From an uncultured Clostridiaceae bacterium (GTDB taxonomy: Bacteria; Bacillota; Clostridia; Lachnospirales; Lachnospiraceae), in assembly GCA_947175805.1 (NCBI GenBank), contig CAMWOF010000001.1, forward strand, positions 1 through 31,915: a DNA stretch of 31,915 nt, in the 5' to 3' direction. Every line of letters starts with the position of its first letter. Within the stretch, counting starts at the first letter, position 1. The translations under genes and the position numbers were made by a program. Below are positions 25,000 to 30,613 of this stretch, piece by piece. Under the pieces are notes generated by a model. It searched no databases. It was not told where the DNA came from and worked only from the letters and a program-made list of their open reading frames with translations.

Positions 25000-25035
25000 A
25001 GGTTGAGGATGGAATATGTCTCAGCCTTTTGCTTT
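25000..25035 (+). terminator. Possible terminator after rpoC
   Basis: aggttgag (25000-25007) / ctcagcct (25020-25027, one G-U pair) followed by tttgcttt. Confidence 0.45.
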
Positions 25036-25053
25036 ATAGGAAGGAGAATCAAT

Positions 25054-25713
25054 ATGGAATTTGCACAATATTTTGACCACACAATCTTAAAGCCGGAGGC
25101 GACGGAGGCAGATGTCAGAACGGTCTGCGAGGAGGCGAAGGTCTACGGCTTTGCTTCGGTATGTGTTAATTCCAGCTATACTGCCCTGGTGGCAGACGCC
25201 TTGGAGGACACGGAAATAGATGTGTGTACGGTGATAGGCTTTCCTCTGGGGGCAATGTCCACAAAAGCCAAGGTGGCTGAGACAAAACTGGCAATTGAGG
25301 ACGGTGCAGATGAGATTGATATGGTAATGAATATCGGTGCGATGAAAGAGGGACAGGATGATTATGTGTTATACGATATTCAGGAGGTAAAAAAGGCCTG
25401 CGGTGATGAGGTTATGCTAAAGGTGATTATAGAGACTTGTCTGCTGACCGATGATGAGAAGAAAAGAGCCTGTCAGGCGGCTGTGGAAGCAGGAGCAAAC
25501 TATGTGAAAACCTCTACCGGATTCTCTACAGGCGGTGCTACAGTGGAGGACGTGAAGCTGATGAAAGAGATGGTGGGCGATGAAGCGCTGGTGAAGGCTT
25601 CCGGCGGCATCAGGGATTATAAGACGGCAAAAGCCATGATTGAGGCGGGAGCTGACAGATTGGGAACCAGTGCCACGGTGGAGATTATGAAGGAATACCA
25701 AAAGAACAAATAG
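25054..25713 (+). CDS. deoC: Deoxyribose-phosphate aldolase
   Basis: [46 protein letters not shown] and GADRLGTS motifs; ATG at 25054 follows aaggag. Confidence 0.97.
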
Positions 25714-25744: not shown

Positions 25745-26857
25745 ATGAACCTTACGATATATGTTCTCACACATAAAAAATTTGATGTGCCTAAGGATGC
25801 AACATATCAGCCGCTGCAGGTGGGGAGTGCAGTGCATGATAATCTGGGTTATCTGCGGGATGATGCCGGAGAGAATATTTCTGCTCAGAATTGTTATTAC
25901 AGTGAATTGACCGGTTTATACTGGATATGGAAAAATGTAAAAAATGTAGATTATGTCGGAACATGCCATTATCGCCGTTACCTGATTAATGGAGAGGAAA
26001 AGGTATTTACAAAGCAGGAATATGAGAATCTTCTGAGGGAATATGATTTAATTACGACAAAGAAGGTACATTTAAATAATTCTTATCACTATGGTTTTTC
26101 TGCAAATCACAATATTGCTGCATTGGATATGACAGGAAACGTGATTCATGAGATATATCCGGAGTATTATGAGACCTTTGAAAAATTAGTTAACGGTCCG
26201 GATACTTATTTTGGCAATATGTTTGTGACTAGCAAGGCGCTCTATGATGAGTATTGTGAGTGGCTTTTTTCTATATTTTTTGAAGTGCAGAAGCGAATTG
26301 ATATGGAGATAGATGAAGACGATTACCATAAAAGAGTGTTTGGTTTTATTTCGGAATTTTTGCTTCTTGTGTGGACAACGAAAAAAGGGCTTAAGGTATG
26401 TGAATGCAAGGTTGGAATGATTGGAGAAAAGGCAGAAACCCGTGAGATGAAGGAGCGTCTTAGGGTTTATCTGAAATCACATGATATTGATGGGGCAAAG
26501 GCGTATTTTATGGAGCAGTATAAGCTTCGACCTGATGTTTTGATGGAGGCCTCGGATATTACCGGCGAGCTCCGTCTCACGATGCAGATTATAGCGACGG
26601 CGGATGCGGAGCAGCGTATCAACGGGACAAGTATTCTCGACAGTGAGGATGAGCTTTCTAAGCTGTTCCCTTTGTTTGTTTCTCTCAATCGTGCAGTCGC
26701 AAATGTTGCAAAGTACATAGAGAACGAAGAGGATTGTGCGTTTTTGCAAAACATGCCATTATCACAAGTAGCGGTGCGGGTGGCAGTGGAAATCTTCCCG
26801 GAAAAATCGTTGGACAAAAATGAACTTTTGCAGCGGCTGCTTGGTATGGGATTATAA
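25745..26857 (+). CDS. DUF4422-family glycosyltransferase with C-terminal helical extension
   Basis: IYVLTHK, DDAGENIS..N..YSELTGLYWIWKN, DYVGTCHYRRY and RVFGFISEFLL are typical DUF4422 motifs. Confidence 0.82.
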   Translation: MNLTIYVLTHKKFDVPKDATYQPLQVGSAVHDNLGYLRDDAGENISAQNCYYSELTGLYWIWKNVKNVDYVGTCHYRRYLINGEEKVFTKQEYENLLREYDLITTKKVHLNNSYHYGFSANHNIAALDMTGNVIHEIYPEYYETFEKLVNGPDTYFGNMFVTSKALYDEYCEWLFSIFFEVQKRIDMEIDEDDYHKRVFGFISEFLLLVWTTKKGLKVCECKVGMIGEKAETREMKERLRVYLKSHDIDGAKAYFMEQYKLRPDVLMEASDITGELRLTMQIIATADAEQRINGTSILDSEDELSKLFPLFVSLNRAVANVAKYIENEEDCAFLQNMPLSQVAVRVAVEIFPEKSLDKNELLQRLLGMGL

Positions 26858-26929
26858 TTTTGGCAGGCATACATACATCCGGGCCGCAGTGTAGATTATT
26901 ATGATGTAATTTTAAGGAAGGAGATAAAT

Positions 26930-27472
26930 ATGGCTACATGGAGCGGTATTAGAAATAAATTAGAAAATGATTATTTGGCTGAGAGCTTGCGTGGACATAT
27001 CCAGTATTATGCCACGTCTTACAGCCGGAGCCCGGATCATGAGGGCAGGGCAGCCATTAGATATGATGGAAAAGACATAATCAAAGGCTGTTACAATAAT
27101 TATTGGCTCAAGGCAGGTCAATTTCCCAGGGATGAGAAGTATGAAAAAAGGATGCAGATGGAATATGCATATATGGATGATACTGCATTAAAGTTAGGAG
27201 TATTTGATCAACGCTGCTTTTATAGTGCATTTGATGAATTTGACAATCAAAGTATTGAGAAGAGCCTGGCAAGTGAAAATCTGATAGTGAGAATATTTGC
27301 GGTGCTAGACAGGCGTGTCGGGAAAAGGCGATTAGCAAAAATGAAGGAGCATATCCTTCAGGAACCGGAAACTTTTCAAGAATTTTTTGCAATACGGGCA
27401 AATGCAGAAGGGATAAAACTTCAGACTGGAGACAAAAATGATATGGAGATTGTTGACGGAACAGGAAATTAA
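26930..27472 (+). CDS. Conserved hypothetical protein (resembles the SF0329-type family; family call uncertain)
   Basis: Strong RBS aaggaaggag. Motifs WSGIRNKLE..YLAESLRGHIQY..TSY....DHEGRA and NLIVRIFAVLDRRVGKRRL are recalled from a widespread uncharacterised family. Confidence 0.7.
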   Translation: MATWSGIRNKLENDYLAESLRGHIQYYATSYSRSPDHEGRAAIRYDGKDIIKGCYNNYWLKAGQFPRDEKYEKRMQMEYAYMDDTALKLGVFDQRCFYSAFDEFDNQSIEKSLASENLIVRIFAVLDRRVGKRRLAKMKEHILQEPETFQEFFAIRANAEGIKLQTGDKNDMEIVDGTGN

Positions 27473-27698
27473 TATTGTATATGAGCAGCATATGAAACGG
27501 GGTTTTCCGCCGGAGGAGCTGCCTCCGTTTCCACCGGCAATGGAGTTGATTGCGAGTGGAGAAGGATGGTTTTTCGGTATCTTTGATAAAGCGCAGGATG
27601 GCGGAATTGAAGGTGCCCATGAAATGAACAGTGATATAGATTTAGAGAATCTGGCAGCCTATATGCAGGTGTTGAAGCTAGGGGTTTGCTCATCTTAA
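27438..27698 (+). pseudogene. Truncated 5' copy of the downstream GNAT gene (86 aa)
   Basis: About 92% nt identity to 28137-28443 (20 differences in 255 aligned nt, excluding a 51-nt indel). It stops before acetyl-CoA-binding motif A. Confidence 0.85.
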
Positions 27699-27714
27699 AG
27701 GAGTAGGATGGATT

Positions 27715-28104
27715 ATGGGGGAAATGTCTTTTTTAGCATTGATTTTAGGAATCGGTTTGGGAGTGTTTGTACTAGGCTTTGGAATATATCAGCGTGTTAG
27801 CTGTAATGTGTCGGTAATTGCGAGATGTACAGGCTATCGGTCAAAATATGAAGGTCAAAAGGCTTCGTGTTATCCGATTTTTCAATACAATTATAATAGT
27901 GAAGAATATATGTCTGTTGGATATTTTAGTGCAGAGGGATTTGAAAAAAATCAGGACTATAAAATCTGGATAAATCCCCGAAAACCAAGCGTTATCTGGC
28001 ACAAAAGGGAGTTGGAAGTATATATCATGGTGATGCTCTTGTGTTTGATTTGCATTATACTTGCATTGTCAGGAGTTTGTGACCGTATGGAACTATATAT
28101 GTAG
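27715..28104 (+). CDS. DUF3592-like small membrane protein
   Basis: N- and C-terminal hydrophobic helices bracket YPIFQYNYNSEEY...YKIWINPRKP; visibly AT-richer than the core genes. Confidence 0.65.
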   Translation: MGEMSFLALILGIGLGVFVLGFGIYQRVSCNVSVIARCTGYRSKYEGQKASCYPIFQYNYNSEEYMSVGYFSAEGFEKNQDYKIWINPRKPSVIWHKRELEVYIMVMLLCLICIILALSGVCDRMELYM

Positions 28105-28136
28105 ATGAGAAAACGCAACCGGACAGGAGAAATAAA

Positions 28137-28892
28137 ATGATATGGAGATTGTTGACGGAACAGGAAATTAATATTATATATGAGCAGCATATGAAACGGG
28201 ATTTTCCACCGGAGGAGCTGCCGCCGTTTCCGCCGGCAATGGAGCTGATTGCAAGTGGAGAGGGATGGTTTTTCGGGATTTTTGATAAAGAGCAGGATGG
28301 CGGAACGGAAGGTGCCCATGAGGTGAAGCAGGATGGCGGAACGGAAGGTGCTCATGAGGTGAAGCAGGATGAGATGAACTGTGATATAGATTTAGAGGAT
28401 TTGGCAGCCTATATGCAGGTGTTGAAGCCGGAGGTTTGCTCATATGCACTGCTTAACTATTATGCGGTACTGCCGGCGTACAGAAATCAAGGGTTGGGAG
28501 AGCGGCTTTTAGGTGAATTGCAAATGCATTTGCCTAAGGTACAGGGTATTATTATAGAAGCGGAGATTCCAAAAAAGTCGGAGGATGCCGGGATTGCCCA
28601 AAGGCGTTTGGGTTTTTATGAGCGTGTCGGTGCGGTTAATACCATGTGGCAGGAGCAGGTATATGATGCATGGTACTACGTTTTGGTAAAATTATTTGCC
28701 GATGGTGGGGTTGGACAGGCATTGGATGATTTGCAGATGTGTTACCAGAGACTTTTTACAAAGCTTCAATATCAACAGGCATTTGGACTATGGGATGATA
28801 AGGGGAATGTGATTAGTGCAAGACCCAAGCATTTGAAACTGGACAGAGATAATCAGATTCAAGGTGTAATGTTAGTTGCAAAAAAGGAGTGA
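28137..28892 (+). CDS. GNAT family N-acetyltransferase
   Basis: Motif A YYAVLPAYRNQGLGERLL and RRLGFYERVG; RBS caggag. Confidence 0.88.
   Translation: MIWRLLTEQEINIIYEQHMKRDFPPEELPPFPPAMELIASGEGWFFGIFDKEQDGGTEGAHEVKQDGGTEGAHEVKQDEMNCDIDLEDLAAYMQVLKPEVCSYALLNYYAVLPAYRNQGLGERLLGELQMHLPKVQGIIIEAEIPKKSEDAGIAQRRLGFYERVGAVNTMWQEQVYDAWYYVLVKLFADGGVGQALDDLQMCYQRLFTKLQYQQAFGLWDDKGNVISARPKHLKLDRDNQIQGVMLVAKKE
28291..28371 (+). repeat. In-frame 36-bp tandem repeat (2.25 units) inside the GNAT gene
   Basis: agcaggatggcggaacggaaggtgc[c/t]catgaggtga at 28291-28326 and 28327-28362, plus agcaggatg; encodes QDGGTEGAHEVK twice. Confidence 0.92.
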
Positions 28893-28898
28893 GACAAT

Positions 28899-29657
28899 AT
28901 GAAGTTAATTTCATGGAATGTAAATGGGTTAAGAGCCTGTGTGGAGAAAGGTTTTCTGGACTTTTTTAAAGAAATAGATGCAGACATTTTTTGTGTGCAG
29001 GAGACAAAATTGCAGGAAGGACAGATTCAGCTGGAGCTGCCGGGCTACTACCAGTATTGGAATTATGCGGATAAGAAAGGGTATTCAGGCACAGCTATGT
29101 TTACGAAGAAGGAGCCGCTTAAGGTAAGCTATGGTATGCACAAGGATGAGCATAATCATGAGGGGCGTCTGATTACTGCTGAGTTTGAGCAGTTTTATAT
29201 GGTGACCTGTTATACACCCAATTCACAAAATGAGCTGGCGAGACTGCCTTACAGAATACAGTGGGAGGCAGACTTTAGGGAGTATTTGGGTGAGCTTAAG
29301 CAGAAGAAGCCTGTAATTGTAACAGGAGATTTGAATGTGGCACATCAGGAAATAGACCTTAAAAACCCAAAGACTAACCGCAAAAATGCCGGATTTACCG
29401 ATGAAGAGAGAGGGGAGTTTACAAAGCTGTTAGAGGCGGGGTTTGTGGATAGCTTCCGCTATTTTTATCCAGAGCAGGAGGGAGTGTATTCCTGGTGGTC
29501 ATATCGTTTTCAGGCAAGGGCAAAGAATGCGGGATGGCGGATAGATTATTTTTGTGTGTCGGAGGATTTGAAAGAAGCTATGCAAGACGCCAAAATTCAT
29601 ACACAGGTCATGGGCTCTGATCATTGTCCGGTGGAGCTGGACATAGATTTGCAGTAA
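28899..29657 (+). CDS. xth: Exodeoxyribonuclease III / AP endonuclease (ExoIII family)
   Basis: SWNVNGLRA, QETK, KKGYSGTA, GDLNVAH, GWRIDYF and GSDHCPV motifs. Confidence 0.97.
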   Translation: MKLISWNVNGLRACVEKGFLDFFKEIDADIFCVQETKLQEGQIQLELPGYYQYWNYADKKGYSGTAMFTKKEPLKVSYGMHKDEHNHEGRLITAEFEQFYMVTCYTPNSQNELARLPYRIQWEADFREYLGELKQKKPVIVTGDLNVAHQEIDLKNPKTNRKNAGFTDEERGEFTKLLEAGFVDSFRYFYPEQEGVYSWWSYRFQARAKNAGWRIDYFCVSEDLKEAMQDAKIHTQVMGSDHCPVELDIDLQ

Positions 29658-29698: not shown

Positions 29699-30613
29699 GT
29701 GAAGGATATGTTATTGGGTTCTCATGTGGGGATGAGTGGTAAGGAAATGATGTTAGGCTCGGTAAAGGAAGCGATTTCTTACGGTGCAAATACATTTATG
29801 TTATATACAGGTGCGCCCCAGAATACCAAAAGAAAGCCTGTGGAGGAGCTTCGGATTCCTGAAGCGAGAGCACTGATGGAGGAACAGGGAATAGAAAGGT
29901 TTGTGGTGCACGCACCGTATATTATTAATCTGGCCAATGCGGTGAAGCCGGAAACCTTTGAAATAGCGGTGGAGACTTTGGCGAGTGAACTGGTTCGGAC
30001 GGAGAAAATGGGTTCTGATACATTGATTCTTCATCCGGGTTCTCATGTAGGTGAGGGTGTAGATGTTGGAATTGCAAAAATAATAGAGGGCTTAAATGAG
30101 GTGCTGGCAGTGCCGGGGACGGTCAATATCGCATTGGAAACCATGGCTGGTAAGGGAAGTGAGATTGGCAGGAGCTTTGAAGAGCTTGCGAGAATTTATG
30201 ATGGTGTGAAATATCCGGAGAGACTTAGAGTATGCTTTGATACCTGTCACACCCATGATGCTGGATATGATTTGGTTCATAAGTATGATGAGGTTATGGA
30301 AAGCTTTGACCATATTATAGGCAAAGAGCAGATTGCCGTATTTCATGTGAATGACAGCAAGAATCCATGCGGGGCTGGAAAGGACAGACATGAGAACTTT
30401 GGATTTGGATATATTGGTTTTGATGCATTAATGCAGGTGATTCGTGATGATGCCTTTGCTGATGTGCCTAGGATTCTGGAGACACCATATGTGCCGTCGG
30501 CGACAAAGGAGAAGGTGTCATATGCTCCTTATAAAGAAGAGATTGCAATGATCAGGAGCGGAGTATTTGACGAGGGCTTAAAGGAAAGACTGGCAAATGA
30601 CAGCGTCAGGTAG
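29699..30613 (+). CDS. nfo: Endonuclease IV (deoxyribonuclease IV)
   Basis: [42 protein letters not shown] and ILETP motifs. The true start may be the ATG at 29708. Confidence 0.97.

Follow-up and report, generated by a model that had tools for sequence, protein, structure and literature searches.

How does a gut bacterium come to carry a small gene lodged between two unequal copies of the start of another gene? The question is raised by a 31,915-nucleotide stretch of DNA (the window) from an uncultured Clostridiaceae bacterium, placed by GTDB in the Lachnospiraceae (assembly GCA_947175805.1). The window is the entire contig C1 (CAMWOF010000001.1) of a fragmented metagenome-assembled genome (MAG; 376 contigs, 84% complete). 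On its + strand a stub of a GNAT acetyltransferase gene is followed by a gene that we call X and then by an intact GNAT gene. We favour, with moderate confidence, reading this arrangement as what a single recombinational insertion-duplication has left behind in an operon that varies between strains. The reading is built on the anatomy of the locus, the allele-like divergence of the two GNAT copies, the existence of occupied and empty alleles and the hybrid pattern of the empty one. It does not describe a new class of element: the locus is a real recombination scar, variable between strains, of a familiar type and only modestly interesting.

The anatomy is as the initial annotation proposed, with X bracketed by two copies of a GNAT 5' end. 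The upstream copy, R1 (27424-27693, +), comprises the GNAT ribosome-binding site and the first 256 nt of coding sequence, and the downstream copy, R2 (28122-28443, +), runs on into the intact GNAT gene (28137-28892, +; 251 aa). As delimited by repeat search and MAFFT alignment, the two are direct repeats around 428 bp of insert-specific DNA (27694-28121, +), which holds an AAGGAG ribosome-binding site, gene X (27715-28104, +; 129 aa) and a 17 nt spacer. They are the only two copies in the whole assembly and are 91-92% identical in the MAFFT alignment, with one 51-nt gap in R1; both extend from the ribosome-binding site to a GNAT codon, 85 in R1 and 102 in R2. The homology does take in the ribosome-binding site, as had been claimed, beginning about 14-20 nt before the ATG and including GGAGA. 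Further upstream, into the SF0329-family gene or X, similarity was not above chance (207 of 1000 shuffles reach the same value). At the other end the homology halts at gtttgctcat, also as first described, and R1 continues as tct-TAA, a stop that overlaps the AAGGAG ribosome-binding site of X. The joint between gtttgctcat and cttaaagg is abrupt; the intact gene has another CTTAA 8 nt beyond this point, possibly by chance.

The divergence of the two copies bears on where they came from. The earlier codon count is exact, 18 of the 85 aligned codons being different, 10 of them synonymously. By the Nei-Gojobori method, synonymous divergence (dS) between R1 and R2 is 0.28 and nonsynonymous divergence (dN) 0.043, with a dN/dS of 0.15 (Fisher p 1e-4). 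Between the window and L028, the contig with an empty site described below, dS is 0.146 for the SF0329-family gene, 0.137 for xth and 0.35 for the rest of GNAT. The R1/R2 value is therefore roughly double the dS between strains in the flanking genes and close to that among GNAT alleles. Because of this, and because dN/dS is low, the pair is not a fresh duplication, in agreement with what the synonymous excess had first suggested. The allele-like dS and the dN/dS of 0.15 rule out that R1 arose by recent duplication in place and then decayed. Judged from these comparisons, R1 and R2 are best seen as two functional alleles brought together, whose differences accrued under purifying selection. They are also not sisters relative to the empty-site allele of L028, a check proposed with the original description. 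The suggestion that R1 is the foreign allele holds in part: two alleles are indeed present, but when polarised on the empty allele the 5' part of R1 is of the resident type, and the divergent, X-linked allele is the 5' part of R2.

A dN/dS of 0.15 suits two long-functional genes equally well, and this brings in the main rival. In it, the locus once held old tandem paralogues in the order GNAT_A-X-GNAT_B, both functional and of full length; a deletion of GNAT_A from +257 to its last few codons left R1, and unequal crossing-over of the two paralogues produced the empty alleles. The sequence after the break (c TTA AAG GAG TAG, then ATG) mimics a GNAT terminus (AAA AAG GAG TGA) with the ribosome-binding site of the next gene, as this history would predict, although the shared AAAGGAGT may simply be a good ribosome-binding site and the match due to chance. 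There is, however, no sign of tandem full-length copies, with no two full-length GNAT clusters on contigs of equal size; R1-type sequences form a single cluster with one truncation point, and more steps are needed. We consider this origin unlikely, while regarding it as a serious competitor to the insertion-duplication.

An empty site, whose existence the initial annotation had proposed to check, was found in L028 (WFLX010135585.1, 1696 bp), the sole match in one metagenome scan. It reads SF0329-GNAT(254 aa)-xth without X; the SF0329 gene immediately precedes GNAT and has the same tail as in the window. The 254-aa GNAT (P0087) is recorded on 11 contigs of up to 9951 bp, none of them in the X cluster. 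The SF0329 protein P0089, recorded on 7 contigs, likewise has 9951 bp as its largest contig, and no X-cluster member is on a 9951-bp contig.

The GNAT gene of L028 has the make-up that had been predicted for a product of R1 x R2 recombination, with an R1-type 5' part, an R2-type 3' part and the 51 nt retained. We scored the 19 sites that distinguish R1 from R2 and at which L028 matches one or the other. Within codons 14-57, 10 sites are R1-like and 2 R2-like, while within codons 79-99, 6 are R2-like and 1 R1-like. Accordingly, the 5' part is 95.9% identical to R1 and 91.4% to R2, and the 3' part 87.7% identical to R1 and 94.5% to R2. The pattern, from one low-quality contig and a mosaic gene, has a Fisher p of 0.006 and a permutation p, allowing any breakpoint, of 0.026. 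It fits a relation in which the occupied and empty states would be separated by a single R1 x R2 crossover, in either direction, near a tandem repeat in GNAT. A hybrid empty allele is also expected from crossover between tandem paralogues.

The tandem repeat also accounts for the 51 nt, which had been described as an insert. They are not foreign: they stem from variation in the copy number of a 36-nt tandem repeat (28291-28371, +; 2.2 copies; unit QDGGTEGAHEVK), which is in frame and encodes a surface loop of GNAT. Among alleles and homologues (P0001-P0011, 70-92% identical) the loop has 0, 7, 17, 22 or 34 residues, and the repeat falls in the same interval as the inferred R1 x R2 crossover.

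This coincidence is open to another account, in which X entered once, R1 and R2 never exchanged, and the switch in the empty allele reflects an ordinary inter-strain exchange of a GNAT segment that ended near the tandem repeat. GNAT alleles are strongly mosaic, with patches of 14-15 differences per 60 nt; one of them, P0002, mixes R1-type and R2-type residues, and the corrected p of 0.026 comes from 19 sites. Against this, the switch matches the single-crossover prediction in both repeats, R1 being resident-like at its 5' end and divergent at its 3' end and R2 the reverse. We think it quite unlikely that no exchange between the repeats took place.

The occupied arrangement recurs in other samples. 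The R1 peptide cluster has three members. One of them, P0080 (ENA, 1016-bp contig), differs from the R1 of the window at three residues and ends in the same junction-made CSS-stop. Variants of X from other samples are also present (P0082-P0085), P0083 on contigs of up to 4320 bp. P0080 and P0085 are both on 1016-bp contigs, and P0084 and the GNAT P0002 both on 1371-bp contigs; in each case the two probably share one contig. The readable R1-X junctions of occupied copies, from two samples, are one and the same. At residue 14, isoleucine is found in the R2 of the window and in the X-linked P0002, and valine in both R1 peptides, in the empty allele and in more distant homologues. This thin evidence would fit X travelling with its own GNAT 5' end.

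A further R1 peptide, P0079 (92 aa, 27,715-bp contig), was considered as a third junction and rejected: its tail is translated Nextera adapter, a chimeric read end, and the remainder is the window's own sequence and thus not independent of it. The peptide is spurious and stems from a second public assembly of the region, which ends in adapter at about window position 27677, inside R1. The Illumina Nextera adapter (CTGTCTCTTATACACATCTGACGCTGCCGACGA, with errors) also occurs at the ends of contigs C44, C130, C355, C327, C53, C265 and C145 of the MAG. The window itself contains no adapter sequence.

Such traces, together with the fragmentation of the MAG and the break of another assembly inside R1, are what could be expected if the locus were an assembly chimera of two co-existing strains. 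Both junctions, however, are found again in other samples, in diverged sequence; R1 and R2 are set apart by 428 bp of unique DNA and share no exact word longer than 42 nt, and the window is free of adapter. The likelihood of a chimera verges on the negligible.

How, then, might X have entered? Which way events ran, in what form the DNA came in and how X is expressed are matters of inference. In the insertion-duplication that we favour, the incoming segment would have been a promoterless X joined to the 5' end of a different GNAT allele, from the ribosome-binding site to about +256. It would have entered a resident SF0329-GNAT-xth operon through the GNAT homology, either by a single (Campbell-type) crossover of a circularised fragment or by homology-facilitated illegitimate recombination of a linear one. 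The outcome would be a defunct GNAT fragment upstream (R1), followed by X and by a full GNAT gene (R2 and the rest), GNAT being kept intact because the homologous piece holds the start of the gene and not its end. X would thereby be gained without knocking out GNAT or the downstream xth-nfo. All the genes are co-directional and tightly spaced, and X is probably read from the operon transcript via its own AAGGAG site, which overlaps the stop of the stub. Loss of X could follow from RecA-type recombination between R1 and R2, which would delete X and leave a hybrid GNAT, and the empty allele has that make-up. With one empty-site DNA sequence, the Campbell-type route, the homology-facilitated illegitimate route and loss of X by deletion are not distinguishable.

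Campbell-type insertion-duplication, the single-crossover integration of a circle carrying a 5'-terminal gene fragment, is used for gene targeting in Gram-positive bacteria. Its product, like the locus described here, consists of a truncated target copy, the inserted DNA and an intact copy with its own ribosome-binding site at the start. The direct repeats can recombine and lose the insert, and hybrid repeats are expected around the crossover. Here too a direct duplication of the target segment flanks the insert, and a fragment holding only the 5' end accompanies a truncated upstream and an intact downstream copy. The differences are that the present case is natural, that its insert is 428 bp with a single promoterless gene, that its repeats are 9% diverged and that it has no known circular or plasmid donor.

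Homology-facilitated illegitimate recombination is a well-established process in which remnants of displaced genes stay behind (PMC5361080, citing de Vries and Wackernagel 2002, Prudhomme et al. 2002 and Meier and Wackernagel 2003; see also PMC3240628). The locus may share with it one homologous arm and one abrupt non-homologous joint, and neither requires an element-encoded enzyme. It differs in that such events usually combine an insertion with a deletion of recipient DNA, whereas here the joint lies inside the homologous gene and 270 bp are duplicated. The host, moreover, is uncultured and is not known to be competent for DNA uptake.

Another parallel is offered by the orphan modules of polymorphic-toxin loci, namely the type VI secretion system effector-immunity arrays of Vibrio cholerae (PMC5361080) and the Rhs and contact-dependent inhibition (CDI) orphan arrays cited there. 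In these loci, as here, incoming alleles enter by homology in a conserved part, truncated remnants of older genes lie beside small accessory genes, and the copies within one genome are not each other's closest relatives. Their orphans, however, are 3' toxin tips with immunity genes, placed downstream, whereas ours is one unit with a 5' stub upstream, and nothing points to a role of GNAT or X as toxin or immunity protein. Integron gene cassettes are similar in being short, promoterless single-gene units inserted in the direction of the operon. They differ in that the present locus has no IntI or attI and its unit is flanked by 270-bp homologous repeats and not by core sites. Downstream of X, where the spacer from its stop to the GNAT ATG is 32 nt, there is no attC-like inverted repeat.

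The absence of an integrase had been pointed out from the start, and a search for tyrosine recombinases (PF00589) bears this out, with none on the 31.9-kb contig and matches only on C30, C91, C137 and C161. We found no inverted repeats in or beside the insert, no further insert copies elsewhere in the assembly, no promoter- or terminator-like sites on the + strand of the insert and no Rfam match for it. As inverted repeats, extra copies, a tyrosine recombinase on the contig, an RNA family match and an insert promoter or terminator are all absent, the locus shows no element-specific machinery. An integron cassette was rejected (no attC, no recombinase beside the locus), as was an insertion sequence or miniature inverted-repeat transposable element (no terminal inverted repeats, short target duplication or extra copies in the assembly, and no recombinase).

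Several points weigh against the insertion-duplication. The search for a donor with a native X-GNAT arrangement covered 200-400 genomes of the family, 185,579 GTDB species representatives, IMG/VR, plasmids and phages, and no lineage in which X natively adjoins GNAT was found in these collections, the last two giving SF0329 matches only. A search of relatives of G027 with P0094, the nearest other X homologue, gave no donor and no other X or GNAT context, and the distant X homologues in other genera are not beside a GNAT gene (tblastn). Neither a circle nor a second crossover point was seen, and an illegitimate joint inside a homologous stretch is unusual for a linear homology-facilitated event. 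The left end of the insert, in its resemblance to a GNAT 3' end, could mean a former full-length upstream paralogue. The sole empty-site DNA comes from a 1.7-kb contig of low quality (an N, and a stop within xth), and the hybrid pattern comes from its 19 sites. Given the mosaicism of GNAT, a breakpoint at the tandem repeat could also stem from ordinary allelic exchange between strains.

The initial annotation went further and proposed an insertion hotspot and a reversible variation mechanism at the head of GNAT-xth-nfo. The hotspot is not supported: a single cargo and a single junction are seen, R1 peptides from two samples ending in the same CSS-stop. A dedicated switch or cassette, in which X and the GNAT stub repeatedly enter and leave to give phase-like variation, could draw on the occurrence of both states in public data, X being recorded on 6 contigs and GNAT of the empty type on 11, and on the compact, promoterless cargo. 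It has to contend, however, with the single cargo and junction and with the lack of a recombinase or a site-specific recombination site. Exchange, including deletion of X, should also be rare between 270-bp repeats that are 9% diverged, with 42 nt as the longest exact word common to both, and an excised 0.7-kb circle cannot replicate and is unlikely to re-enter. We therefore judge such a switch very improbable; regain of X by ordinary double crossover with DNA of an occupied strain is more likely. There is an outside chance that X and the 5' stub together form a self-targeting, enzyme-free cassette, the stub acting as a built-in homology arm for insertion and removal by the RecA of the host. 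If so, X would be inserted without destroying its target, and presence/absence variation in the population would be maintained by selection.

Read as an insertion-duplication, the locus would offer a clean natural case of a gut bacterium that gains a gene within an operon, needs no mobile-element enzyme to do so and keeps the interrupted gene, with occupied and empty alleles both in public data. A 5' stub in a genome could then be read as a dated record of allele exchange.

What the insert brings is X, a protein with hydrophobic N- and C-terminal segments flanking a beta-rich middle. Its description as DUF3592-like is upheld only through its relatives. X alone falls below the Pfam cut-off (PF12158, E 0.064; 14.4 against 25.3 bits), whereas its phmmer relatives P0096, P0097, P0098 and P0104 (E 1e-9 to 1e-5) exceed that for DUF3592, and the nearest ESM Atlas clusters partly carry this domain. 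By such transitive evidence X is taken to be a divergent DUF3592 relative. A DUF3592 membrane protein has been noted in LXG toxin loci, where its role is unclear (PMC12482557). Derivation of X from GNAT or SF0329 sequence was rejected, there being no similarity and X having DUF3592 relatives.

X has a GC content of 36.7%, and 35% at third codon positions (GC3), against 44.7% for the genome, and is also below GNAT. Among 5.8 billion clusters it forms a single 90% cluster of five sequences, and the nearest other homologue, P0094 (MDE6025822.1, Lachnospiraceae MAG, 16,838-bp contig), is 61% identical. With its lower GC and one 90% cluster only, X looks like a later arrival. The gene has two possible starts: an ATG at 27710 is best spaced from AAGGAG, yet it is out of frame in the window. 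The variant P0082 begins at this upstream ATG, so that start-codon usage differs between strains; a single-base indel in the T-run near 27748 would explain the shift.

The R1 open reading frame (ORF; 27438-27698, +; 86 aa) is a truncated GNAT stub that ends at the equivalent of GNAT residue 102, its final S-stop being made by the junction. The R-x-x-G-x-G acetyl-CoA motif occupies residues 116-121 of full GNAT and is missing from R1, which thus cannot be an acetyltransferase since it stops before the motif. In the window, R1 has three private replacements (D22G, P to L and E to G) at sites conserved in nearly all full-length homologues, and P0080, from another sample, is without them. They mark the start of R1 decay. 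Annotators are thereby warned that the 86-aa ORF is a remnant.

The intact GNAT carries its domain at residues 102-165 (PF13508/PF00583) and weakly matches the GNAT of PDB 3ey5 (E 5e-4). The comparisons above show that its repeat loop varies in length and that its allelic lineages are deep. In two other stretches of the gene (about +368-428 and +608-668) strains differ by about 25%, against about 6% in the flanks. The C-terminus also varies, through single-base indels, between ...QIQG-stop, ...VAKKE-stop and ...VAKRSETV-stop (window 28860-28900; L028:1160-1210), and in one form the ORF continues into the xth start codon. In the window, the ribosome-binding site of xth sits within the last codons of the intact GNAT.

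The wider order on the + strand is rpoC, deoC, DUF4422, SF0329 family, R1 stub ORF, X, GNAT, xth and nfo. DUF4422 had been named as the upstream neighbour of the cassette, but the gene directly upstream is the SF0329-family one (26930-27472, +; PF25753, E 1e-48; NF049912), whose final 35 nt overlap the start of the R1 ORF. The DUF4422 gene (25745-26857, +; PF14393, E 8e-82) is one gene further up and opens an accessory block between deoC (25003-25713, +) and xth (28899-29657, +). The latter is a core gene, as is nfo downstream of it (29699-30613, +). The congeneric genome G003 has rpoC-deoC-xth-nfo, with xth conserved directly next to deoC and the block absent, and in genome G001 xth is in another context. 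The DUF4422-SF0329-(X)-GNAT block, 3.1 kb in all, is thus accessory throughout. Set against L013 (G003:C22), the block (25745-28892) is an accessory island set into the rpoC-deoC-xth-nfo backbone. The GC3 of DUF4422, SF0329 and X is 35-41%, below that of the core neighbours (44-55%).

Relatives of the SF0329-family gene, about 72-78% identical, are found on the Subdoligranulum plasmid records OY725881.1 and OY725843.1 and on the human-faecal phage contig MT836171.1. In another Lachnospiraceae genus (locus L005, G027:C304), an SF0329 gene lies upstream of two unrelated GNAT genes (PF13508 and PF12746), and the pairing of SF0329 with GNAT may thus recur.

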